DNA from: an uncultured Candidatus Saccharibacteria bacterium
GTDB lineage: Bacteria; Patescibacteriota; Saccharimonadia; Saccharimonadales; JBBQAJ01
Reading direction: 5' to 3'
DNA: 64,000 bases
NCBI GenBank assembly: GCA_964597925.1
Contig: CAZQZT010000001.1
Span: forward strand, 119,929-183,928
In this document: in pieces, positions 9,495 to 20,239 of the stretch
Layout: the number at the start of each line of letters is the position of its first letter
Numbering within the stretch: position 1 is the first letter of the stretch
Translations under genes and position numbers: made by a program
The notes under the pieces: model-generated
What the model was told of the DNA's origin: nothing
Seen by the model: only the letters and a program-made list of their open reading frames with translations
Database searches by the model: none

Positions 9495-10090
9495 TAAGAC
9501 CGCAGATTTTTCAACATTTCAGCAGTTGAATCTAGCTGGGGGCACGCTTTTTCGGAATAAATAAAGAGCATTTTACCGTTATTCAGAACAAAACTGTGGT
9601 TTAGCTTTAAGTTACTCTCGTCAGACAGTTTTTCATATGTAATTCTTAGCCCCCTGGCACAAGCTTGGGCCTGAGGTAGTTCATCAAACAATTTAGAAAT
9701 ATTTTGCGCGGTGTAGAGTTTTGATTGTGCGTCACCTAGTACGAATCTGTTACTAATCGTAAATTCTATATCGTTCGGGTCAAAATCATTATATGAATAA
9801 ACTAAAACAAAACGGGAGTGATCATTGGCATATGGCAAATAAAGTTTTGATGGTGGGAAATATAAATCACCTGTTTTTGGGTCTTTAACCGCTGGCTGCT
9901 TGAGATTATCGATAGCTGATATTATCAGTTCTCGTGTTGTCACCATCTCTATTTGATCTCTGTTGATTTTGTATCTGATAATCTCCCAATACCCCGAGAA
10001 CCCTACAATTAAAATTATTGCCAATATCGGTATTCCTATCGAGATACGTCGATATTTAGAAACCAGTTTTTTTGATTTAGTTTTTGCCAT
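9491..10090 (-). CDS. Hypothetical N-terminally membrane-anchored protein
   Basis: 199-aa ORF with an N-terminal anchor ISIGIPILAIILIVGFSGYW. GATAAT lies 5 nt upstream of the ATG. Confidence 0.65.
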   Translation of the reverse strand: MAKTKSKKLVSKYRRISIGIPILAIILIVGFSGYWEIIRYKINRDQIEMVTTRELIISAIDNLKQPAVKDPKTGDLYFPPSKLYLPYANDHSRFVLVYSYNDFDPNDIEFTISNRFVLGDAQSKLYTAQNISKLFDELPQAQACARGLRITYEKLSDESNLKLNHSFVLNNGKMLFIYSEKACPQLDSTAEMLKNLRSY

Positions 10091-10215
10091 TTTTCATTAT
10101 CTGTTTAATAAATCTAATTATGGCATACAAAATATTAAAATGACAGTACTATTCAGTACTAATCGAAATTTACCTAGCAATCACCTCTGTTATGTGATAG
10201 TATCTAATCTGTTAA

Positions 10216-10292
10216 GCACCCGTAGCTCAGCTGGATAGAGCGTCTGTTTGCGGTACAGGAGGTCGTGCGTTCGAATCGCGCCGGGTGTACCA
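10216..10292 (+). tRNA. tRNA-Arg; hand-folded anticodon reads GCG (needs software confirmation); CCA encoded; integration target
   Basis: GCACCCGTAGCTCAGCTGGATAGAGCG TCTGT TTGCGGT ACAGG AGGTC GTGCGTTCGAATCGCGC CGGGTGT ACCA. The 5' half resembles E. coli tRNA-Arg. Confidence 0.88.
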
Positions 10293-11888
10293 TTCTAGAC
10301 GTAAAGCGTCTAATAAGTCATTTTTCATCTGTTGAGACATTGTTCTAACCTGTTCGAATTGTTCAACAAAGCGTTTTGTATTATCACGAAGTGGCAGTAG
10401 CCACTCGTTAGGTGTTATTTGTAGTTTTCCGTCTAATAACACAGGGTTCTGACCAATCGCTAACAGTATTTCCTTTTTATCAGCAATATCACCATTTATG
10501 AACTTAGCGTTAGCGTTCATGAACTTACTTATCAGGTCTGTCATATAGTCGTACCAGTTTTCGGTACTCTCATTTTTAGTAGCCTGTTGTTTATGCAGTT
10601 CTTTTAATTCAGCTTTGAGTTTTTCGGACTTCTCAATAAACGTATCTTCATCTACGAGTTTACGAGTAGACATGTCTAACAGGGTGTCTAGTTGGTCTTT
10701 TAAGCCCTTTATAGCCTGTTCTTGCATAGTTTCTACACTCTTACGCTCTGGTATGTCGGCTTGTGCCATTTGGCTTATAGCGTCCATGCTCCAATCGTAG
10801 AGTTCTGGGATTAGCTCCCATTTATTGAGTTCCTCTACGCATTCCTTGAATAATTCATCTTCCGTTTTATAGCCATACTTCTTAATCTGACCGCATGGGC
10901 GTTTACCAGTACAGTGATAATAGGCATGAATACGGGTAGTGCCATTTGCGTTCTTACGTTCTTTACTTTGAGCTGTAATCATACAATCACACTCACCACA
11001 GCGTATAAAGCCACGTAGCACGAATTGCTTACGAGTTGCGAAACGCTTACCACCATGACGACCTAATAGTAACTGGATTTTGTCGTACTCATCTTGGGTC
11101 ATTAAGGCTGGGAAATCTGCTGGATACAATTTGTCTTCATCATAAGGATCAGGCACCCAACCTGCATAACGGACGTTACGGAACATATAATAGAGTGATG
11201 AACGACCAATTGGACCACCACCTCTTTTTTTACGCTGAACCGTGCGGTAACCCCACTCATTATTCATGATGTCTAAGATTTGCTGGACACTGTATTCACC
11301 AGTAAGCATCAAGTCTACGGCTTTACGCATTAGCGGAAAGCGTTCAGGGTCTTTGTAGACCGTCTTATTTATACGGTCATTTAAGTAGCCTTCTGGTGCG
11401 GTGCCAGTTATGCCACCAATTTTACGCTTTCTTTCATTACCACGTTTTACGTCCTTACTCAGCTTGGCTGAGAAGTATTGCGACTGGCTCATAGTCATTT
11501 GTAGCATCATGATATTCTCTGGCGAGTTTTCAAAGCTAAAGCTGGCGAACTTTAGGTCTTTTATACCGCCTTTGCGTATACGCCAAGTAATAGTTGAAGC
11601 GTCTACTTCGTTACGGGACAAGCGGTCTGGGTGCCATGCAATAATGCCGTCAGCTTCGCCGTTATCTAGCATCTCTAGGAGTTCCTTAAAGACTTCACGC
11701 TTATCTGGTTCGAAAGCACTCTTGCTTTCGTCTAGAGTTTTAATGATGTTTAGGTTTTTGAACTGTTCTTCACATTTATCTATTTGTGCATCTTTAGATA
11801 GCACCTGCTTTTCTTCATCTTCTGTAGACTTACGCACGTATAACACGTAGCGTAGTTTATTAGTCTTGTCGTTTGGATATTCACTCAT
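10227..11888 (-). CDS. Large serine recombinase (integrase)
   Basis: N-terminal resolvase domain YVLYVRKSTEDEEKQVLSKDAQ (catalytic Ser context), then a recombinase domain and a Zn-ribbon (CGECDCMITAQ...YYHCTGKRPC), then a coiled-coil tail. Start probably Met18 (11888). The last 22 codons run antisense through tRNA-Arg. Confidence 0.9.
   Translation of the reverse strand: MSEYPNDKTNKLRYVLYVRKSTEDEEKQVLSKDAQIDKCEEQFKNLNIIKTLDESKSAFEPDKREVFKELLEMLDNGEADGIIAWHPDRLSRNEVDASTITWRIRKGGIKDLKFASFSFENSPENIMMLQMTMSQSQYFSAKLSKDVKRGNERKRKIGGITGTAPEGYLNDRINKTVYKDPERFPLMRKAVDLMLTGEYSVQQILDIMNNEWGYRTVQRKKRGGGPIGRSSLYYMFRNVRYAGWVPDPYDEDKLYPADFPALMTQDEYDKIQLLLGRHGGKRFATRKQFVLRGFIRCGECDCMITAQSKERKNANGTTRIHAYYHCTGKRPCGQIKKYGYKTEDELFKECVEELNKWELIPELYDWSMDAISQMAQADIPERKSVETMQEQAIKGLKDQLDTLLDMSTRKLVDEDTFIEKSEKLKAELKELHKQQATKNESTENWYDYMTDLISKFMNANAKFINGDIADKKEILLAIGQNPVLLDGKLQITPNEWLLPLRDNTKRFVEQFEQVRTMSQQMKNDLLDALRLEWYTRRDSNARPPVPQTDALSS
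10284..10295 (+). repeat. attL core (GGTGTACCATTC = last 9 nt of tRNA-Arg + TTC)
   Basis: Exact 12-mer shared with 19461-19472. Confidence 0.65.
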
Positions 11889-12101
11889 TGTTTTGTTCTT
11901 TCTCGCTGTCATCAAAAAGGACAGCACGGCTGTTTTCACATCCAGTCGCCAATGGCTACTTTCTGCACCGTGCTGCCCTTAGAGAGCAGAAACAAAAATA
12001 CCACTGGCTTTTTGCTGGAATGTGAAAACATTACTATTATATATTGTTAAAAATTGCCTGTATAGCCGCATTCTGGCTACTGGTATACCCACTAGGTCTA
12101 C

Positions 12102-13376
12102 CTATATTGTTTGCTCTGGAAACCACTTCGGGTAAATTAGTTTGGTACGCCTGTCACCAACCTCTGGCACTTGCTGGGTAATAAGGCCGCTGGCTTCAAG
12201 TTGAGGGAGTATTTCTTTGCGTAAGTAGGTTTCGGGAAGTGTGGTCTTTTCCAAGTGCAGATACTCACGAGAAAGCTGCTCACGGCTTACACCTAAGCTG
12301 TATGGGTCTATGTTCGGGTGAGCTGCCACTAAATCGTAGAAGGTAGGTAAAATATACGTCTTATAGAAGTGAATGGCTGTCGGAGGAATGCCTAAGTTCT
12401 GGCTCTGGGCTAATTGCTCCCACAGTTCAAAGGCTTGGTCAATGTCTGACTGATTAGCCACGATAGAACCGTCTGAATGTTTGCGGTGCCACAGATTAAG
12501 TAATGTAATGACCTTAATGAGCTGTTGCAGGTGCGTAAAGTCACGAGTATGACGTTGGCGGAGTTTTGGGAATGCTTTGTAGAAACGCTCTTTAATTGCC
12601 CCATTATCTGGTAGCTTGATATGCTCTACGCATTCGTCACGGACCGCTATGATACGCTCTTTAAGTGCTACACGCTCTGGTTGAGATTCCAGCCACGCTG
12701 TATAGGCTTTTTCGTCTGTACCACGCTTGTTTTGCAGCTCAATCGCTGCACGTAATTTTGCCTGACTGGGTTCGGGGCTAAGTAATATAGCTCTGGTAAC
12801 TTCTTGCTCGTCTAGGCGAAGTCCTGCTGAACAAAATACTGTTGCAGGAAATCCCTGTAAGATGATGAGTTCGGTATGGTTTTTACCTGACTTGCTCTTG
12901 TTGGTAATGCGATAGTTAATTTCCCAGCTATCGTGCGACAGAATCGGGCGTAGTTTAGTTTGTAGAACGGGATTACTCTGTTCGTAGAACAACAATATCT
13001 TACGTTCAAAAGATACAATCTTTGCACCACGCTCCTCATCTTCAACGCCCTCAGTATGGTAAAAGGACGTTGGACTCGCACCACTCGACTCAATCTTGTC
13101 TTCGTCTGGGAACAGCTCGGCTACTTCGGTGGTAATGTAGGTCTTACCTGATGCACTAGGTGCATTAAAGCTGACGTTAATCTGTGAATCGTGAGTATAT
13201 GCAGATAACATACAGTAGAAAGTAATGAGCTTGCAGACATTATCTTCTTTAATTGTTAGTTCTAGCACGTTCAATAATTGCTGTACGGATATTTCAGGGT
13301 AAATGCGTTTATCTAGTCCGCCCAGTGCTTCATGCACTTCTTCTTTAGTCGTTTGAGTTTGTGGATTCATTTTCAT
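12102..13376 (-). CDS. P-loop NTPase with C-terminal winged-helix-like region; candidate replication initiator/helicase (SF3-like) of the element
   Basis: Walker A NAPSASGKTYITT, Walker-B-like KILLFYEQSN, and a C-terminal EILPQLEASGLITQQVPEVGDRRTKLIYP. The function is inferred from architecture only. Confidence 0.7.
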   Translation of the reverse strand: MKMNPQTQTTKEEVHEALGGLDKRIYPEISVQQLLNVLELTIKEDNVCKLITFYCMLSAYTHDSQINVSFNAPSASGKTYITTEVAELFPDEDKIESSGASPTSFYHTEGVEDEERGAKIVSFERKILLFYEQSNPVLQTKLRPILSHDSWEINYRITNKSKSGKNHTELIILQGFPATVFCSAGLRLDEQEVTRAILLSPEPSQAKLRAAIELQNKRGTDEKAYTAWLESQPERVALKERIIAVRDECVEHIKLPDNGAIKERFYKAFPKLRQRHTRDFTHLQQLIKVITLLNLWHRKHSDGSIVANQSDIDQAFELWEQLAQSQNLGIPPTAIHFYKTYILPTFYDLVAAHPNIDPYSLGVSREQLSREYLHLEKTTLPETYLRKEILPQLEASGLITQQVPEVGDRRTKLIYPKWFPEQTI

Positions 13377-13542
13377 ATTCCTTGCTTAATTGTTGTTGTA
13401 GTTTCAGGCCAACTAGACGCAATATTGCACGTCCAGCAGCTTGGGCTTTTTCGTTGTCGTAGTCCAAGTTATGATGTTTCTTCAAGATTGCTTGGAGCTT
13501 ACTGATGCTGTCGTCACTAATCCTCATTGTCTGAATCTCCAT
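13345..13542 (-). CDS. Small hypothetical protein (element)
   Basis: 65-aa ORF overlapping both neighbours, suggesting translational coupling in a five-gene minus-strand operon. Confidence 0.5.
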   Translation of the reverse strand: MEIQTMRISDDSISKLQAILKKHHNLDYDNEKAQAAGRAILRLVGLKLQQQLSKEYENESTNSND

Positions 13543-13792
13543 ACACGCCGTTTAAGATGTGCTCGTATGCCATGAAGTAATGCTTGGCGTTTACCGTTAG
13601 CTTGCCACTTACGTAGGCTTCTGCGTCTTGCTCTACGGTTGATGTATCCTCGAAATGGAATACAGGGCACTTACAATCATCTGCTGTGTGCATGTCTATT
13701 AGTTCGTAGCCCAAGTGCAACAGTGCGGCCGCTAATCCGAAGTCATACACGTCAAAAGTAGTTGAGTCTTCGGTTTTAATTGGTTTATCCAT
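13517..13792 (-). CDS. Small acidic hypothetical protein (element); pattern reminiscent of small phage/plasmid proteins
   Basis: 91 aa, FDVYDFGLAAALLHLGYELIDMH...CPVFHFEDTSTVEQDAEAY. The start is 1 nt after the upstream stop. Confidence 0.55.
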   Translation of the reverse strand: MDKPIKTEDSTTFDVYDFGLAAALLHLGYELIDMHTADDCKCPVFHFEDTSTVEQDAEAYVSGKLTVNAKHYFMAYEHILNGVYGDSDNED

Positions 13793-13793
13793 T

Positions 13794-13985
13794 TTAACGA
13801 CCCTCCTTTTGCAGGAGTTTTATCTTTTTAAGAACACTTTCAATGACTTTACGTTTTTGTTTCCACTCACGCACTGTCGGAGAGTTTGCCGCAACGGCAT
13901 ACCCCCATTGGATACCAAAGCTGACGGCTTTAAGCTCCTCGCTTGTTAGATTTAGTGTATGTGTTTGGCTGTCTTTCTCGGCCAT
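13794..13985 (-). CDS. Small basic hypothetical protein (element; RDF/regulator candidate)
   Basis: 63-aa ORF, K/R-rich C-terminus, tightly packed in the operon. Confidence 0.5.
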   Translation of the reverse strand: MAEKDSQTHTLNLTSEELKAVSFGIQWGYAVAANSPTVREWKQKRKVIESVLKKIKLLQKEGR

Positions 13986-14073
13986 GATATTTACCTCATT
14001 CTGAACATAAAAATGCTCGTAATTTATTGTTACGAGCTAAGCCTATCCTATGGTCTGGCAGAAAAGTTTTCTG

Positions 14074-15162
14074 TCAATCTTTCAGATAACGAGGGTTGAT
14101 TTCGAACCTCCAGTCATTGGAGATTATTAAGTCGTCTACTCCTATTTTTTCATCAACTTTTCTGTTAATAGCAGCAGCTAATTCACGAGATTTTTTAATA
14201 ATTTCCTGTGTATAACTCTCGCCTTTATGGGGGTATATGCTTCTGAAAGGCACTCCACGAAGAAATGTATATTCGTAGAATAACTCACGCATAAGCTTCG
14301 CTTGTTTACTTTCTTTTCTTTTGCCCAGTCTGTTTACTTGCCCAATAATATTTACTGGTTGCCCACGAACAACCAAAATACCTGACGCTGGATCATAGTT
14401 CTTGGCTTCTACGCTTATATGCCTTCTGTCTAGTGGCCGTAAGGTTTTCTTTTTATCTGAACCTATAACAAAACCGAATCTAGGGTCGATGACTGAGTAA
14501 TTCAGGTCACCAAATTCTGTAATTGCAATCTTATCTTTATCTACCAAGTCAAAGAGTGATTCAAAAAACCTCACATTGTCTGGTATATGGAATCGAGTGA
14601 TTTTTGCGGGATATTCTGAATCTTCAAGTAGGTTTGTGATAGCTACATATTGTTCCCCGTAAGGTATATAGGTAGGTGCGGTGGGTGTAAATATTTCATC
14701 ATTTCGGTATCGCTCTAAATAATCTCGAACGACCTGTCGTATCCACGACTTATCAAGCACTTTGATATGAAACTCAAGACAACCGTGTAATGTTTCTGTG
14801 AGAATATCCCGTTGCTGAAGCAATTCGCTAAAGTTTGACCTATGTACCTCTCTGTCATCAGCCTCCCAATCGGCAATATTTTGAACCTTAACAATAAGTT
14901 CATTTAGCTCGTCTGATTCTGGTTCGTTTACTTCATGAAGTTGCTGTAGGTATTTTCTGAAGTTAAGGTACACGCCTTCTGTTTTAATTTTTTGCTTACC
15001 CTCTAGTGCTGCCAAGACATAAATGCTAGTTAAGACATCATCTTCTTGATTTACGGCTAGGTTGAGCGACTTAACCACCTCTTGAGGATTAAGCGATACG
15101 AAACCACCAAGTATTCCGTAAATTAGCAATGTTTCATCGTCCCAGTAGGGTATTGTGTCCAT
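14074..15162 (-). CDS. Hypothetical 362-aa protein (element), no recognisable motif
   Basis: Long ORF with coding-like composition; first gene of the minus-strand operon. Confidence 0.7.
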   Translation of the reverse strand: MDTIPYWDDETLLIYGILGGFVSLNPQEVVKSLNLAVNQEDDVLTSIYVLAALEGKQKIKTEGVYLNFRKYLQQLHEVNEPESDELNELIVKVQNIADWEADDREVHRSNFSELLQQRDILTETLHGCLEFHIKVLDKSWIRQVVRDYLERYRNDEIFTPTAPTYIPYGEQYVAITNLLEDSEYPAKITRFHIPDNVRFFESLFDLVDKDKIAITEFGDLNYSVIDPRFGFVIGSDKKKTLRPLDRRHISVEAKNYDPASGILVVRGQPVNIIGQVNRLGKRKESKQAKLMRELFYEYTFLRGVPFRSIYPHKGESYTQEIIKKSRELAAAINRKVDEKIGVDDLIISNDWRFEINPRYLKD

Positions 15163-15243
15163 ACGTTAATTATTATGGAGCATTGTCGTGGTACAAACCA
15201 GTTGTATTGAGGATTTATTTTCGGTGCTAGTATAAGAGTTATC

Positions 15244-15387
15244 ATGTTTATCGCATTTACTCTGACAATTACAGCACTCTTGTATGCTGTTTTCAGCAAA
15301 AAGACACCGCCTAAAAGAACCCGACGACAAAAGCAAGATGACGAACTGATAACCACCATTTTGCCTACTATCAACAGCGACCAGTAA
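15244..15387 (+). CDS. Possible 47-aa single-TM peptide (element)
   Basis: MFIAFTLTITALLYAVFSKKTPPKRTRRQKQDDELITTILPTINSDQ. Below the track's size cutoff. TATAAG (15231-15236) lies 7 nt upstream of the ATG, matching the leaderless pattern seen elsewhere. Confidence 0.4.
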   Translation: MFIAFTLTITALLYAVFSKKTPPKRTRRQKQDDELITTILPTINSDQ

Positions 15388-15449
15388 AGTTCCTAAAAAG
15401 TCCAATCTGTCATAATAATAAGAGAGGGACTAATACAAAAAGGAGTTTT

Positions 15450-15683
15450 ATGACCTATACGAAAGGCGTGGGACGACCCACTAAAATGAATATTAGCATT
15501 ATGGTGAAGTTAGCAGATGCCCTAAAGAACAATTACACCGTAAGTGATGCTTGTAAATGGGCAAGGATCGGCAGAACAACTTACTACCGACACATGGACA
15601 ATAACGTAGTCTTCGCAACTAAGATGAATTATGCGATAGAGTGCCGTGACAAAGTGTCGTTTAATTTTGGTACAAGTTACTGA
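15450..15683 (+). CDS. Small helix-turn-helix DNA-binding protein (element)
   Basis: GRPTKMN...YTVSDACKWARIGRTTYYRHM resembles a resolvase/terminase-small-subunit type HTH. AAGGAG SD upstream. Confidence 0.6.
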   Translation: MTYTKGVGRPTKMNISIMVKLADALKNNYTVSDACKWARIGRTTYYRHMDNNVVFATKMNYAIECRDKVSFNFGTSY

Positions 15684-15987
15684 CTCAACTAGTTGATTTG
15701 TACACGATAATAATAAAAGTAGTGTTTCATAATTGGTAGCTGTGAATGGTGAAAAATGGCGTTAGGGTTCGGAAATCTGGCCAAAAATTATATGTAGCCA
15801 TACTGTTGCTTGGATTTAGCATTTAGGTGAACGAGATTTAATACCCTCTGTAGGCTCTCTGGAGCTTGCTGGACTAGCTTCTTGACGAAAGTTGGGTAAA
15901 GTTATATGCCGACCAAGAAACAGTGAAACATATACGGGTTCAGACGGTGGAGTAGTATACTGTGGGCAAGGAGTAAATTAAAAACAA

Positions 15988-17091
15988 ATGAACGAACAAT
16001 TTGACCAGCTAGTAAGCTATGTAAAACAACACTTGGATCAGGGTGTGCCAGAAGACCGTATTCGCCAAACCCTGCTACAACATAATTGGAACGCAGATTT
16101 AGTAAATAGGGCTTTTTTGTCAGTAAAGGCTCCACAAACATCTTATCCAGAGTCAGACGCAACCAACCAGCCAAGCAACTTAAATGCCAATAATTGGGAG
16201 CAGCCCAATACTACTCAAGCACAAGCTCCAAGTGCTTATGAACATGCGAATCAAGTCAGCCCAGAATCGAATGCTCCAAAAAAGTACAAAATTTTTCGTG
16301 CGATAGGCGACACTTTTCATGCCATAAAAAACAATGCAGGTGCCTTCTTCCTATCCGTTATTTTAAGTTATGCAGTTGCAGCCGTTTTTCTATTTGTAAT
16401 ATCGTTTATCATTAGCAAGGTTTTGTACGGCGAGTTCGGTTTATTATTTGCTTCTACGTCAAAATTACTAACCGTACTGTTAGGTAGCCTAATTCTTTAT
16501 ACTGCTTGGTACGCTTTGGCAGGAGCATTTATTTTAGCGACCACCTCTTTAGCTCTTTATGATGGCAGCGAGAACCGAAAAAGTTCGTTATCCACTATAT
16601 TATCAAATAGCTTCTCAAGATTAGGCAGAGTGGTTTTAGCCGATATATTATTCTGCCTTGTAGCATTTTGGCCTATTGTATTGATAATATTCTTACCCAT
16701 TATCTTCTTAACAAGTGGGGTCGGCGGGAGCAATTCTTCTCTAATTCTATTGCCAATCCTAATGCTTGTAGCAGTTATCTGGATTTATGTAGCATTGGTA
16801 CGATTTGCACTAGCACCATACGTAGCCCTATTTGAGCCTAATATACCGATTACTAAAACATTGGGTCGCAGTAAGCACCTACTCGTAAAAGGTGGTCAGT
16901 GGTTCTTGGTTAAAGGATTTTTGTTTCTTCTCCTAATCTTAATTTTATTAGCAGTTGCTACTGGTCAAAACCTACCAGAGCTAATGGATTCCAACAACCT
17001 AGCTATCAACATATTTTTGATAATTGTTTCCGTGGTTGTGAACGGTGCTTTAGTTATGCTTTATCACAACCGTAAAATTATAAGAGGGTAG
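15988..17091 (+). CDS. Polytopic membrane protein with a Q/N/P-rich soluble N-terminus (element cargo)
   Basis: 367 aa with about 6 hydrophobic helices after residue 120. AAGGAG lies upstream. Confidence 0.75.
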   Translation: MNEQFDQLVSYVKQHLDQGVPEDRIRQTLLQHNWNADLVNRAFLSVKAPQTSYPESDATNQPSNLNANNWEQPNTTQAQAPSAYEHANQVSPESNAPKKYKIFRAIGDTFHAIKNNAGAFFLSVILSYAVAAVFLFVISFIISKVLYGEFGLLFASTSKLLTVLLGSLILYTAWYALAGAFILATTSLALYDGSENRKSSLSTILSNSFSRLGRVVLADILFCLVAFWPIVLIIFLPIIFLTSGVGGSNSSLILLPILMLVAVIWIYVALVRFALAPYVALFEPNIPITKTLGRSKHLLVKGGQWFLVKGFLFLLLILILLAVATGQNLPELMDSNNLAINIFLIIVSVVVNGALVMLYHNRKIIRG

Positions 17092-17182
17092 TTCTATCAA
17101 TTCGCTACACGTTATAGATATAGTTGCCCGTGCTGGCGGTGGTGGCTCAGGTGGTGGTGGAGGTGGTGCAGGAATCATCATA

Positions 17183-18316
17183 TTGCCCCTTATAGTTTTT
17201 GGGATTGTTGCTTCGTGGTGGATTCGCCGTAAAAGAATAAGAAAAGCAGAAGCTCGGCAAAAGCAAGCTCAAGCAAACGATCCGACGTGGTCTGACGAAG
17301 CGATTGAGCAGAGGGTTACAGAAGTTTTCCATACTTTTCAAAAAGATTGGAGCGATTTCAATACAGAAAATATGAAGTCCTATTTAACGCCCCGTTACCA
17401 AAATCACATATCACTTATGCTCGTTGCTCTCCATCAAATGGGTAGGCGAAATGAGATGAAAAGTGTCAGTCTAAGTAAGGTTACTCTTTTTGGTGTTGAT
17501 GATAGCGAGCACGATGAACATGACAGATTTAATGTAGAGATTAAGGCTTCGGCAATAGATAATCTTGTAGATTTGAGAACAGGTAAAGTATTGCACGGCA
17601 ACTCATCTTCATTTGAGGAGCTTTGGCACTTTGAAAGAGAAGGCAGAGAATGGGATTTAGATTCAATTACCCAAATAAATAGAGATGATTTGATAGTCAA
17701 ATACGACCCTAAAGTTGACAAAAAGTACCTAGACTTTGCTGAACAAAATGGCTTTTTCTACAATGCTGACTTTGGCTGGTTACTTATGCCTCTTCACGGC
17801 GTTTTATTTAGCGAAGCCAGTTACGGAAGGTCGGATATTAACCATCACGTCATTGGCCTTTACAATAATGTTGTAGTGCAGTTTTTTGAATACATTCCTC
17901 TTATCCAAGAGAAAGCTAAATTAAAAGACCATTTCAGACACTTTTATAAAAAACGTAATTCGCTGGCTAAATACACGATTGCACACGCAACTCTGACAAA
18001 AGAATACAGCAACATCTTAGTAGAAAGGCGTAGCTTTCCCTCGTTCTTTAGTTTTTCACCTAGTGGAATGTTAAAAGTATCTTTGGAGTGGCCTCAATTT
18101 AATAAATTGTTTAATGTATTCGCCACAGATATTGATAAAGTAACCAGTTTAGAACTACTCCACCCTGCGTTTATGGAAAAATTGGCACACGCACCTTATC
18201 GTATTAACCTTGAAATTATTGGAAACGACCTTTATTTATATACAACCGACAAAAAAGCAGATTATCAACAAATGCTGAAAATACTAAAGGAAGCATTTGA
18301 AGAAATGAAAATGTAG
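17183..18316 (+). CDS. Membrane-anchored Tim44-like-domain protein (element cargo)
   Basis: TTG start in the track, TM helix PLIVFGIVASWWI, then WSDEAIEQRVTEVFHTFQKDWSDFNTENMKSYLTPRYQNHISLML, typical of bacterial Tim44-like domains. An in-frame Gly tract lies upstream without a canonical start. Confidence 0.7.
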   Translation: MPLIVFGIVASWWIRRKRIRKAEARQKQAQANDPTWSDEAIEQRVTEVFHTFQKDWSDFNTENMKSYLTPRYQNHISLMLVALHQMGRRNEMKSVSLSKVTLFGVDDSEHDEHDRFNVEIKASAIDNLVDLRTGKVLHGNSSSFEELWHFEREGREWDLDSITQINRDDLIVKYDPKVDKKYLDFAEQNGFFYNADFGWLLMPLHGVLFSEASYGRSDINHHVIGLYNNVVVQFFEYIPLIQEKAKLKDHFRHFYKKRNSLAKYTIAHATLTKEYSNILVERRSFPSFFSFSPSGMLKVSLEWPQFNKLFNVFATDIDKVTSLELLHPAFMEKLAHAPYRINLEIIGNDLYLYTTDKKADYQQMLKILKEAFEEMKM

Positions 18317-18482
18317 ATTTGGCTAATAACTATATAGGTTAGCGTGGTGGGTGGTGTTTTACAGGGCGTTTGAGCTATGATAAGCAAGGAATAGTGACCT
18401 AACCTGCTCTAGTATGCTGTACCAAGCATAAGCCTGATAAAATTCCTTTATAAAAAAACACAAATCTTTATTTATTATTTTG

Positions 18483-18599
18483 ATGGTCATTGTGGTGCTT
18501 TTTATTGGCGGATGGTTTCTCTACTGGCATGTTACTGAACCAAAATGTATTGAATGGACGAATCAAAGCATTAATCGCTGCGTAAAGTGGGAGAAATAG
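18483..18599 (+). CDS. Possible 38-aa TM peptide
   Basis: MVIVVLFIGGWFLYWHVTEPKCIEWTNQSINRCVKWEK; weak promoter evidence only. Confidence 0.25.
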   Translation: MVIVVLFIGGWFLYWHVTEPKCIEWTNQSINRCVKWEK

Positions 18600-18662
18600 T
18601 TAGGAAAATGGTTCTAACTCTGTACCAATTCGGTTTCAAGTAGTAGGAAATAAATTAAGTTT

Positions 18663-18926
18663 TTAGAGATTTTTATAAATTTCTCGTCTATGACCTATCC
18701 TAATTATAATAATTACGAGTACGTCCTTTTGTAGTTGGTAAATTACCCGATAATCACCGTGACGGATCCTAAATAAATCACGAGACCCTTTAAGCTTAGC
18801 GGAACCTTCTGGTGTTGGATCCTCTTTAAGCAGTTCAATTTTTTGGACAATCGTAACCCTGTCATGCTGGGTTAGTTTGCGTAATTCTTTTTTAACACTG
18901 CTTTTATACTCCAACCTAAAAGACAT
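18663..18926 (-). CDS. relE: RelE/ParE-family type II toxin
   Basis: 87 aa, KLKGSRDLFRIRHGDYRVIYQLQKDVLVIIIIRIGHRREIY. Lies 2 nt downstream of the antitoxin gene. Confidence 0.85.
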   Translation of the reverse strand: MSFRLEYKSSVKKELRKLTQHDRVTIVQKIELLKEDPTPEGSAKLKGSRDLFRIRHGDYRVIYQLQKDVLVIIIIRIGHRREIYKNL

Positions 18927-18928
18927 GA

Positions 18929-19150
18929 CTAAAGAAGGCCTTCACTCTTGAATTCGGCCACTAACTCGTCAAATGAATGAGTAGGTTCATTCTCGCGCCT
19001 TTTTGCCTCTTCAATATCTTCTAAATCCTCGAGCATCTGGTACTTAACGGCATCCTCAACGATGGCAGAGATACTCTCATTACTCTCGGCAGCTCTCAAT
19101 TTTAACGCTCTGTATAATTTATCATTTAAAGTTATGGTTGTACGCATCAT
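18929..19150 (-). CDS. Ribbon-helix-helix (CopG-like) antitoxin
   Basis: MMRTTITLNDKLYRALKLRAAESNESISAIVEDAV (RHH N-terminus) with an acidic C-terminal tail. AAGGAG SD upstream. Confidence 0.8.
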   Translation of the reverse strand: MMRTTITLNDKLYRALKLRAAESNESISAIVEDAVKYQMLEDLEDIEEAKRRENEPTHSFDELVAEFKSEGLL

Positions 19151-19205
19151 TTTGCTCCTTGCTTACGATAGTTCAAGTATAGCACAGATACATCAATGCA
19201 TCAAT

Positions 19206-19412
19206 ATGTACCTCCTCCACGTTTGCTTGAGAAAACAAAAAGTTAAAAAACCGGTGACCTTAAAAAGAGTGCTCGTCTACATTTTTTTATGTTTTTTCGC
19301 ATTAATTATTGGCTGGCTAATTTCGGTAATTATTCTGACGTTACCATTAGCAAAAGACGCATTATGCTCACCAGATTTAAATGGTGGCAAGCAAAACGTC
19401 TGCGAAGAGTAG
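19206..19412 (+). CDS. Possible small single-TM protein at the distal end of the element
   Basis: Met49 of track ORF 19062..19412: MYLLHVCLRKQKVKKPVTLKRVLVYIFLCFFALIIGWLISVIILTLPLAKDALCSPDLNGGKQNVCEE. The upstream part of the track ORF is antisense to the antitoxin. Confidence 0.3.
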   Translation: MYLLHVCLRKQKVKKPVTLKRVLVYIFLCFFALIIGWLISVIILTLPLAKDALCSPDLNGGKQNVCEE

Positions 19413-19460
19413 CTAACCTAACTGAGTGGCATAAAGTAAAGTTCTGACTTCCTCAACCAC

Positions 19461-19472
19461 GGTGTACCATTC
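19461..19472 (+). repeat. attR core (GGTGTACCATTC)
   Basis: Exact copy of 10284-10295. Confidence 0.65.
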
Positions 19473-19484
19473 GAGATTAATTAG

Positions 19485-19510
19485 TAGACGTCAGAACGGC
19501 GTCTATTTTT
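19485..19510 (+). terminator. Intrinsic terminator, probably the original tRNA-Arg terminator displaced by the insertion
   Basis: TAGACG TCAGAACGG CGTCTA T5. The stem arms are identical to the hairpin TAGACG-TAAAG-CGTCTA at 10296-10312. Confidence 0.6.
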
Positions 19511-19524
19511 GTTATCATGAAGAT

Positions 19525-20157
19525 ATGAAACTATACCTATCCTCTTATAGACTTGGTAACGACACTGAAGGCTTCAAAAAGTTGGTTAATAAGCCTGGTG
19601 CAAAAGTTGCAGTTATCGACAATGCACTGGATTTTAGTATGGACTTTGACCGAAAGGCACAAAGTCTTCAAAACGAGCTGAAAGACATGGAATCACTAGG
19701 GTTTATTCCTGAGCATGTTGATTTAAGAGAATACTTCAACGATCATGATGGTTTGTTTGAAAAAATGAAACAGTTCGACGTTGTATGGATACGGGGCGGC
19801 AATGCATTTATTTTACTCAAGGCTATGAAACAAAGTGGCTTCGATAAAGTTATCGTAGAGTTGATAAGAAAAAATAAATTAGTCTATGCCGGATATAGCG
19901 CAGCTCTTTGTGTAATTAGCCCGACAATGGACGGAGTAGAACTAGTGGATGACGTTAATGCCGCTGCCGAAGGATACAGCCAGGAAGTCATATGGGATGG
20001 TTATGGCCTTATCGACTTTTACCCAATAGTCCACTACAAATCAGATCACCCTGAATCGAAACTTGTTGATAAAGAATTAGAATATGTGAAATCAAAGAAT
20101 CGAAAGTTCAAAACCTTACGGGATGGCGACACAATCATCATTGAAACCGACGAGTAA
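19525..20157 (+). CDS. Peptidase S51 (dipeptidase E-like) family protein
   Basis: MKLYLSSYRLGN...VVWIRGGNAFILLKAMKQSGF...VYAGYSAALCV. Start at Met22 because an extended -10 TGtTATCAT (hexamer 19513-19518) lies exactly 6 nt upstream. Confidence 0.8.
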   Translation: MKLYLSSYRLGNDTEGFKKLVNKPGAKVAVIDNALDFSMDFDRKAQSLQNELKDMESLGFIPEHVDLREYFNDHDGLFEKMKQFDVVWIRGGNAFILLKAMKQSGFDKVIVELIRKNKLVYAGYSAALCVISPTMDGVELVDDVNAAAEGYSQEVIWDGYGLIDFYPIVHYKSDHPESKLVDKELEYVKSKNRKFKTLRDGDTIIIETDE

Positions 20158-20239
20158 GGTTCTAACTTCGTTAATGATGCTGTACCAATGAAAGAACCAG
20201 TCCTTGTGACTGGTTTTTTCATTGGTATACTTCAATCAT

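Follow-up and report, generated by a model that had tools for sequence, protein, structure and literature searches.

Within a 64,000-nucleotide stretch of DNA from an uncultured Candidatus Saccharibacteria bacterium (contig CAZQZT010000001.1 of assembly GCA_964597925.1, positions 119,929 to 183,928; the whole stretch is hereafter called the window), a recombinase gene runs at its 3' end into a tRNA-Arg gene on the opposite strand. The question raised by this locus was whether the recombinase carries its attachment (att) site within its own coding sequence, such that integration replaces the C-terminal tail of the enzyme with one encoded antisense to the tRNA, as an original prediction made from the sequence alone had proposed. 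We found that positions 10227 to 10312 are the attL junction of an integrative element of about 9.2 kb (10296 to 19460) in a Saccharimonadales genome. The attP site lies within the last ~20 codons of the element's own large serine recombinase (LSR) gene, here called int, and attB is the tRNA gene's 3' end. The protein encoded by the integrated element is referred to as the L-form and that encoded by the excised circle as the P-form. Considered as a whole, the explanation developed here, which covers the att junctions, the layout of the sites, the exchange of P-form and L-form, an antisense terminator, and a role for the exchanged tail, is in our judgment reasonably probable.

The attachment core lies in frame within the recombinase gene

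The 12-bp core GGTGTACCATTC is present at both ends of the element (Table 1), and when the two copies were extended, 15 of 16 positions were identical. Read as its reverse complement, GAA TGG TAC ACC, the core falls in frame within the minus-strand open reading frame (ORF) 10227..11939 and encodes E-W-Y-T, the four recombinase codons that had been predicted. The int ORF and the tRNA-Arg gene are convergent and overlap by 57 to 66 nt. In the integrated state, the ORF continues antisense through the tRNA and ends in the tail RRDSNARPPVPQTDALSS*, with its stop at 10227 to 10229. Joining the island ends in silico (19460, core, 10296) gave a different tail, VVEEVRTLLYATQLG*, with a stop complementary to positions 19413 to 19415. 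Both the read-through and the alternative tail had been anticipated, and both were reproduced.

The core repeat was not significant by itself, 12-mer repeats being numerous within 10 kb, and neither GC content nor skew gave a signal at the island boundaries. It is the placement of the repeat rather than its length that makes it meaningful: the pattern TGG-N18-GTNAGAAC, which combines the core with a motif described below, had just two matches in 128 kb (both strands of the window), and both lay at the integrase locus. Boundaries lying elsewhere had been named as an outcome that would overturn the prediction; the far end of the element was instead found to carry, in frame, the tail motif common to the recombinase family.

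Public sequence collections were searched for other states of the locus. When the flanking S51 peptidase was looked up by exact match, only occupied loci came back (8 contigs), and the exact in-silico P-form protein was absent from a collection of 15 billion proteins. A degenerate pattern for all four att forms gave one match in the JGI metagenomes, an unrelated, unoccupied tRNA-Arg(CCG) gene (locus L102, positions 10041 to 10123, JAEEGL011068661.1). This gene ends in ...CCGGGTGTACCATTCTAGA, that is, in the window core plus the first island-side bases; therefore, the G1-U72 acceptor end seems native to these tRNA-Arg genes, and the L102 locus is a potential integration target.

The enzyme is a large serine recombinase

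The 553-residue gene call that starts at ATG 11888 is also found on public contigs, and the open frame upstream of this ATG reaches a GTG at 11939. The exact integrated-form protein was found in NCBI and in Logan, and relatives at 88 to 96% identity came from Candidatus Saccharimonadales metagenome-assembled genomes. Searches against Pfam returned the Resolvase domain PF00239 (E = 2e-21) and the Recombinase domain PF07508 (24.1 bits versus a cutoff of 21.1), and Zn_ribbon_recom PF13408 scored 19.6 bits, under its cutoff of 25.3. In two alignments, A1 and A2, of 31 and 46 homologs, R19-K20-S21 in the sequence YVRKSTEDE and four cysteines (C297, C300, C326, and C332) were invariant. The AlphaFold2 (AF2) model contained long antiparallel coiled-coil helices (residues 361 to 408 and 414 to 456), and its best Foldseek matches were the SPbeta, phiC31, Bxb1, and LI integrase-DNA complexes, with a probability of 1.0 to the first three. 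With catalytic, Recombinase, zinc-ribbon, and coiled-coil features all present, the ORF is a bona fide LSR.

A search with the last 96 residues against 1.84 billion representatives matched just 189 clusters, and the C-terminal module is therefore family specific; the same module of the family (the last ~96 residues) fails to align to SprA. No close relative of the recombinase was present in IMG/VR, where matches reached just ~30% identity over the N-terminal ~330 to 360 residues. Scans of the element's cargo against Pfam and PHROGs found no phage hallmarks. A viral nature of the element was rejected on the IMG/VR result and on the lack of phage functions for the cargo in PHROGs.

The tRNA CCA end is written as a tryptophan codon throughout the family

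A homolog search returned 2657 proteins at E <= 1e-10, and 80 genomic loci were fetched, nearly all from Saccharibacteria/Patescibacteria. A minus-strand tRNA overlapped the end of the recombinase ORF in 61 of the 80, and at 59 of these 61 loci the tRNA CCA was an in-frame (frame 0) TGG codon. Eight tRNA isotypes were used (Arg, Tyr, Gly, Trp, Gln, Asn, Ser, and Leu). The tryptophan was invariant in alignments A1 and A2 and was present in all 82 of the 82 representative matches that reach it; homologs thus do not end before EWYT, an outcome that would have made the tail irrelevant read-through.

Downstream of a conserved ...EALRLxW, the C termini of homologs fell into three classes: tails antisense to a tRNA (xRDSNPRP... 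and xxESNxx...), a conserved tail, [VI][LV]x[EDQK]VRTxLL..., that resembles the in-silico tail of the window, and a stop 2 to 3 residues past the tryptophan. Native P-type tails were found in about 17 of 120 homologs. Seven further elements had a second, 9- to 11-bp copy of the core within 10 kb, and their excision in silico yielded tails of the form W-x-x-[VI][LV]x[ED]VRT, namely, WQGVLEQVRTLL (L011), WCSVLFKVRTGL (L023), WCGILSEVRTAML (L026), WQGVIEQVRTLL (L034), WLPVVMEVRTII (L045), and WRRVVDDVRTLI (both L063 and L065). The motif of the excised form across the family was [VI][LV]x[ED]VRTxLL. L-form tails ranged from 2 to more than 70 residues without a common sequence, the shortest being 2 to 3 residues long (WCRV* and WCG*). 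The architecture conserved in these seven elements supports the proposal of an att core inside the ORF and of a swap of the enzyme's tail upon integration.

Several other observations were made among the homologs. A protein of the same 90%-identity cluster with a P-type tail (P0128) was considered as a circular form and rejected; its junction was degenerate, DUF4411/M78 and host pyr genes adjoined it, and there was no tRNA. Three homologs (P0053, P0089, and P0140) carried a third type of tail after the tryptophan, x-G-x-x-F-[LC]-x-[KR]-T-F followed by an acidic stretch of ~25 residues (EDD..D..EV..IL.ED..), which looks like a P-type variant with an added acidic extension. At five loci (L054 near 11614, L069, L027, L038, and L044), the ORF ends were clearly antisense to a tRNA (e.g., RWLRGWDSNPRPMD) where ARAGORN called none, and the explanation may be Patescibacteria tRNA genes that contain introns or are of an unusual kind. 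A 2026 paper reports that, in the Patescibacteria, group I introns occur in the genes for tRNA-Asn and tRNA-Asp. On a 38-kb contig of ERZ1823576 (L099), a P-form integrase stands beside a type IV secretion system coupling protein and a Replic_Relax relaxase, and downstream of these are mer genes and an IS110 transposase; therefore, some family members appear to be part of conjugative or mobilizable elements.

The P arm of attP mimics the tRNA T-loop at an offset of 5 bp

Sites were aligned on the T of TGG as position 0, in the integrase sense. In the tRNA arms (B arms) of 63 attL sites, the antisense of the T-loop, NTCGAAC, occupied +17 to +23. The P arms, of which 34 were available, carried GTNAGAAC at +21 to +28 in 30 cases, and the exact GTTAGAAC in 24. 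TCGAAC at +18 to +23 in the B arm is matched by TAGAAC at +23 to +28 in the P arm, so that the shared TxGAAC lies 5 bp further out in P. Across all loci, TGG-N18-GTNAGAAC occurred 32 times versus ~2.7 expected, and other spacings gave 0 to 6 occurrences. Since GTT accounts for 32% of Val codons and AGA for 18% of Arg codons in genes of the family, codon usage cannot explain the motif, and its conservation is at the DNA level. In LSR sites generally, the motif for the zinc-ribbon domain sits 5 bp further from the center in attP half-sites than in those of attB (Rutherford et al. 2013, PMC3783163). The zinc-ribbon domain of the window enzyme would thus read the universal tRNA T-loop (antisense TTCGAAC) in attB and the mimic GTTAGAAC in the P arm of attP, 5 bp further out. 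Identity between attP and attB was limited in eight elements to TGG and the next 4 to 7 nt (the discriminator and the top of the acceptor stem), and these blocks would confine the crossover to the same stretch. By analogy with LI integrase, on whose numbering it would fall at about +3 to +5, the crossover would lie within all eight identity blocks.

Further copies and symmetries were observed around the site. A copy of GTTAGAAC in the body of the ORF (Table 1) forms a direct repeat of the P-arm copy and lies 78 bp upstream of it; across the 63 attL sites, its conservation also exceeds what codon bias would give, and it has no place in a standard LSR attP of ~50 bp. On the far side of attR, GTCAGAAC was found within the terminator hairpin in three independent flanks (window 19490 to 19497, L026, and L027), 19 to 28 nt from the core. 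In the window, where the distance is 21 to 28 nt, it repeats the P-arm motif perfectly in inverted orientation. This far-side motif may have arisen by chance, or it may be what is left of a P' arm or a genuine half-site. A palindromic model of the att sites was rejected as evidence, since the best symmetry center of the reconstructed sites, +4.5, left them just 34% complementary versus a background of 25%.

The exchanged tail appears to be conserved as protein as well as DNA

Conservation of GTTAGAAC far beyond codon bias, at an offset of the attP type, is what would be seen if the exchange of tails were real but neutral. The enzyme would then effectively end at about W+3, the conserved tail would be nothing more than a translation of the attP P arm, and the P- and L-forms would be equivalent, with directionality coming from a conventional factor and the coiled coil. 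The great range in length of the L-form tails and their lack of a common sequence fit this alternative, as does the extreme end of the P tails, which evolves freely. The pattern of conservation along the P arm argues against it. Three-nucleotide periodicity was observed, with the second-position T kept at codons 3, 4, and 11 and with free wobble at codons 3, 4, 11, and 12, including positions beyond +28 that lie outside a standard half-site. The leucine at codon 11, itself outside the motif, is kept through the use of at least five different Leu codons. P tails were also fairly constant in length, mostly ending 14 to 18 residues past the tryptophan, and a stop fell within codons 1 to 6 in just 1 of 32 DNA-defined P arms, of which ~2.7 are expected to be chance matches.

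Structure prediction pointed in the same direction. In the AF2 model of the P-form (excised in silico), the last helix was continuous from residue 519 to 549 through W533, with predicted local distance difference test (pLDDT) values of 89 to 92 and then 76, the tail being a confident continuation of the amphipathic helix. The helix of the integrated L-form ended at residue 535, and residues 536 to 553 had pLDDT values below 50. The integrated ORF (553 residues) keeps every domain, the change being confined to residues after W533+2. By these models, integration is predicted to truncate the amphipathic terminal helix. The tail region appears to be dual coded, as DNA site and as protein, and we consider it somewhat unlikely that the exchange is neutral.

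The recombinase gene encodes a predicted antisense terminator for the tRNA

The 60 nt after the CCA, in the tRNA sense and inside the int ORF, were scanned for terminators, with 806 windows of the same ORFs as controls. A hairpin with a T-run was present 11 to 13 nt after the CCA in 41 of 62 distinct sites versus 6 of the 806 controls, and the mean minimum free energy was -13.5 kcal/mol after the CCA versus -7.4 kcal/mol in controls. The stems vary by clade with pairing kept (AGCCTC-TTCG-GAGGCT, CAGCCG...CGGCTG, and GCGCGG...CCGCGC). Stem pairing was 82%; the covariation score of 0.353 was above every slid control and compared with 0.173 for shuffled alignments, of which 0 of 500 reached it. 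The T-run was invariant. On these statistics and the covariation, codons of int (e.g., Q-K-A-S-E-E-A) appear to write an antisense terminator that replaces the displaced terminator of the tRNA; therefore, the element would supply the tRNA with a new one. In the clade of the window, the canonical stem is degenerate and TAGACG-N5-CGTCTA takes its place. This island-side hairpin (-7.5 kcal/mol; z = -3.1) is not canonical: its T-run comes only at 10322 to 10326, 9 nt later, and the simple terminator scan gave no terminator call. It is a clade variant of the family's antisense post-tRNA terminator. Its stem arms are the same as those of a second hairpin directly after attR, as the original prediction had pointed out. 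The identical arms were also considered as shared half-site recognition, which was rejected on account of a 12-bp difference in their register with respect to the core.

The terminator raises a second alternative, in which the main consequence of the arrangement lies in RNA. After integration, the 3' end of int mRNA would be antisense to a highly transcribed tRNA gene and complementary to the mature tRNA, and the antisense terminator would stop read-through into int, keeping the integrase low and the tRNA expressed. Such an effect is compatible with our preferred explanation, and the convergent overlap of the two genes, the position of the hairpin and T-run past the CCA, and the covarying stems all speak for it. 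The degenerate canonical hairpin in the window's clade, where the alternative is weak and set apart from its T-run, speaks against it, and an RNA effect would leave unexplained why the P tail is conserved in its amino acids. That the principal effect is on RNA is therefore possible, but we regard it as doubtful.

Proposed consequences of the exchange for integration and excision

The explanation that we prefer begins with a circular element encoding the P-form, in which the last helix would continue for ~14 residues past the crossover (VVEEVRTLLYATQLG). Once integrated, the element would encode the L-form, in which this helix would be cut and replaced by an arbitrary, disordered tRNA-antisense tail. 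The existence of two isoforms that depend on the integration state, as had been proposed, is supported at the level of sequence and model. Since the circle can express nothing but the P-form, and the integrated copy nothing but the L-form, it follows that the P-form carries out integration and the L-form excision, unless a P-form or a second copy is present in the cell. The P-form tail is probably a functional part of the enzyme, as its codon-level conservation and the models suggest. Somewhat more tentatively, loss of this tail might help to set directionality or integration efficiency. It is rather improbable that, throughout this family of candidate-phyla-radiation bacteria, the state-dependent C terminus is a built-in directionality switch that partly or wholly replaces a separate factor, with sites that are effectively one-armed and an attL that can be used again. 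Such one-armed sites would have the tRNA T-loop and CCA on one side and the mimic, shifted by 5 bp, on the other, and re-use of attL as a target would explain the arrays of scars beside tRNA genes that are described below. If this were true, retargeting to another tRNA would need a change in only two codons after the tryptophan.

Several points weigh against the preferred explanation. Public-data searches recovered neither an empty site nor a circular junction of the window element. No mirrored zinc-ribbon-type motif was found in the P' or B' arms and symmetry was weak; therefore, the site model is incomplete. A recombination directionality factor was neither identified nor excluded. For VRT, where the tail is most conserved, the DNA is conserved as well; selection on the protein must therefore be read from the flanking codons only, and DNA contact is possible there too. 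Part of the high pLDDT of the P-form tail may come from the make-up of the alignment, in which P-forms are enriched. Finally, elements whose L-form tails are just 2 to 3 residues long presumably still must excise. The remaining alternative, a coincidental repeat with boundaries elsewhere and an ORF that runs into the tRNA by accidental read-through, can draw on the frequency of 12-bp repeats in 10 kb, the lack of a compositional signal, and the missing empty site, but is already effectively refuted by the in-frame CCA tryptophan codon at nearly every tRNA-bearing locus, the family tail motif in frame after the far core copy, the over-representation of TGG-N18-GTNAGAAC at spacing 18 only, and the same architecture in seven other elements.

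A second scar, an older relic, and the cargo of the element

To the right of attR, at a distance of 715 bp, there is a second, orphan scar, which is followed by a strong terminator and then a tRNA-Ser gene (Table 1). The segment between attR and this scar, with its S51 peptidase gene, is probably the relic of an older tandem element, as the second scar and the scar arrays of other loci suggest, and the peptidase gene may be cargo of that decayed element. The hairpin directly after attR had been described as a host-side terminator. It is present where predicted, with arms at 19485 to 19505, but its host origin is doubtful: given the second scar and the stronger terminator ~715 bp further on, it probably belongs to the older relic and may be that element's own post-tRNA terminator, which would explain why its arms match those of the island hairpin. 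The strong terminator at 20195 to 20215 is probably the original terminator of the tRNA-Arg gene.

Orphan P-arm scars were also observed in arrays of two or three, at L013 (701, 2393, and 3014), L095 (4502, 5468, and 6517), L096, and L097, and further arrays at L023 (1973 and 2896), L027 (1728 and 2380), and L029 (1070 and 2753). The scars are 0.6 to 1.7 kb apart, are separated by one or two small genes, and lie distal to the elements that bear an integrase. The arrays look as though decayed elements had accumulated or, in the manner of an integron, as though cassettes lacking int had been moved in trans. A P-type tail can be regained by an integrase from a neighboring element.

The cargo of the window element consists of ORFs of unknown function, a DUF5659 protein, a small helix-turn-helix (HTH) protein, a Tim44-like/DUF3137 protein, and a ribbon-helix-helix (RHH)-ParE pair, and the same gene set was found on 8 public contigs; SRR8670870 is among the samples that carry the element. 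The RHH-ParE toxin-antitoxin pair is likely a stabilization module. The 77-residue HTH protein, with weak PHROG matches (terminase small subunit or transposase HTH), is a possible candidate for a regulator or directionality factor.

Table 1. Features of the att junctions, the integrative element, and its right flank (window coordinates)
Feature	Position	Strand	Remarks
tRNA-Arg(GCG), integration target, B arm of attL	10216..10292	+	ARAGORN, sequence
LSR gene, integrated L-form, 553 aa from ATG 11888	10227..11888	-	
L-form tail RRDSNARPPVPQTDALSS + stop	10227..10283	-	antisense to tRNA T arm, anticodon arm, and part of D arm
T-loop GTTCGAAT of tRNA-Arg(GCG), B-arm motif	10269-10276		B-arm profile from 63 attL sites
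attL core copy GGTGTACCATTC	10284..10295		last 9 nt of tRNA + 3 nt; codons E-W-Y-T
CCA end of tRNA-Arg(GCG)	10290-10292	+	
Integrative element body	10296..19460		~9.2 kb
Island-side hairpin TAGACG-TAAAG-CGTCTA	10296..10312	+	in codons L-D-A-L-R-L (P' arm)
ORF-body copy of GTTAGAAC	10342..10349	-	codons V-R-T, -57..-50 from TGG
77-aa HTH protein	15450-15683	+	
Tim44-like/DUF3137 protein	17183-18316	+	
RHH-ParE toxin-antitoxin pair	18663-19150	-	
P arm of attR, displaced excised-form tail codons VVEEVRTLLYATQLG + stop	19413..19460	-	stop 19413-19415
T-loop mimic GTCAGAAC within attR P arm	19441-19448		GTTCTGAC on + strand; offset +21..+28
attR core copy	19461..19472		
Probable relic of older tandem element	19473..20178		inferred; S51 peptidase gene (19525-20157, +), no integrase
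Hairpin + T-run directly after attR	19483..19507	+	TAGACG-N9-CGTCTA, arms 19485-19505; -12.2 kcal/mol, z -3.3
Second orphan scar, reading WYSIINEVRTLL...	20159..20187	-	core-like GCTGTACCA 20179-20187; GTTAGAAC 20159-20166 at +21..+28
Strong terminator hairpin + T-run after second scar (B' flank)	20195..20215	+	-19.2 kcal/mol, z -6.2; terminator scan called opposite strand

Relation to known integration systems

The closest precedent is phage Mx8, whose attP is contained in int and whose integration yields a recombinant gene with a new 3' end, an altered C terminus, and altered specificity, the enzyme being still active (PMC6070905). As with the Mx8 forms IntP and IntX, attP of the window element is inside int, and a new 3' end arises without destruction of the gene; the layout works like IntP/IntX but with a serine recombinase, Mx8 Int being a tyrosine recombinase. 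A CCA-antisense Trp codon, a T-loop mimic, and an antisense terminator are not described for Mx8, which is moreover a single phage as opposed to a phylum-wide family. The Mx8 attB is reportedly in a tRNA-Asp gene, and a much longer C-terminal part is said to be replaced there than here. In mycobacteriophages with integration-dependent immunity, the work of Broussard et al. from 2013 is likewise said to have found attP in a coding sequence, with integration changing the C terminus and the behavior of the protein. The affected gene in that case is reportedly a repressor, which loses a degradation tag, and the integrase a tyrosine recombinase.

The original prediction had likened the window enzyme to the SSV-type, or "suicidal," archaeal integrases (SSV1, pTN3, and pT26-2). 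The likeness held for the recombination site inside the enzyme's own gene and for the tRNA target. It did not extend to the fate of the gene, which in the SSV type is split into inactive parts, whereas here ~15 terminal codons are exchanged and the catalytic and DNA-binding domains stay intact; in this, Mx8 is closer. SSV-type integrases are also tyrosine recombinases reported to be exclusive to archaea, in contrast to the serine recombinase of Patescibacteria described here.

Canonical LSRs (SPbeta SprA, phiC31, Bxb1, and LI/A118) share the domain architecture, the fold, and short att sites with the window enzyme. Their zinc-ribbon motif is 5 bp closer to the center in attB, with which one pair of arms agrees here, no mirrored motif having been found in the other. 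They differ in having attP outside int and protein-coding or intergenic targets, rather than attP in int and a tRNA target. The extreme C terminus of SprA is implicated in directionality (according to PMC11722253), and the C terminus of phiC31 integrase contacts its directionality factor. According to a 2020 survey (PMC7192596), serine integrases had not been reported to use t(m)RNA genes. The P4/Islander-type tyrosine integrases that target tRNA genes resemble the present family in inserting at the tRNA 3' end, in regenerating the tRNA, and in accumulating tandem or decayed islands. They belong to another enzyme family, and their identity blocks usually span tens of base pairs, including the T arm, whereas here 9 to 12 bp are identical and the T-loop is mimicked out of register rather than copied. 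In full-text literature searches, neither this family nor serine integrases that combine a tRNA target with an attP inside int were found described.

Implications

The family is a counterexample to the view that serine integrases avoid tRNA genes, as a large, coherent group of these enzymes systematically uses the universal CCA end and the T-loop. It also amounts to a naturally occurring test of what the extreme C terminus does in serine-integrase directionality, both isoforms being made in nature, and to an extreme case of overlapping information, in which a protein helix, a recombination site, and an antisense terminator share ~80 bp. Such enzymes might be retargeted among conserved tRNA sites by two codon changes. 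For the Patescibacteria, episymbionts with reduced genomes, the arrangement constitutes a mechanism of mobility.

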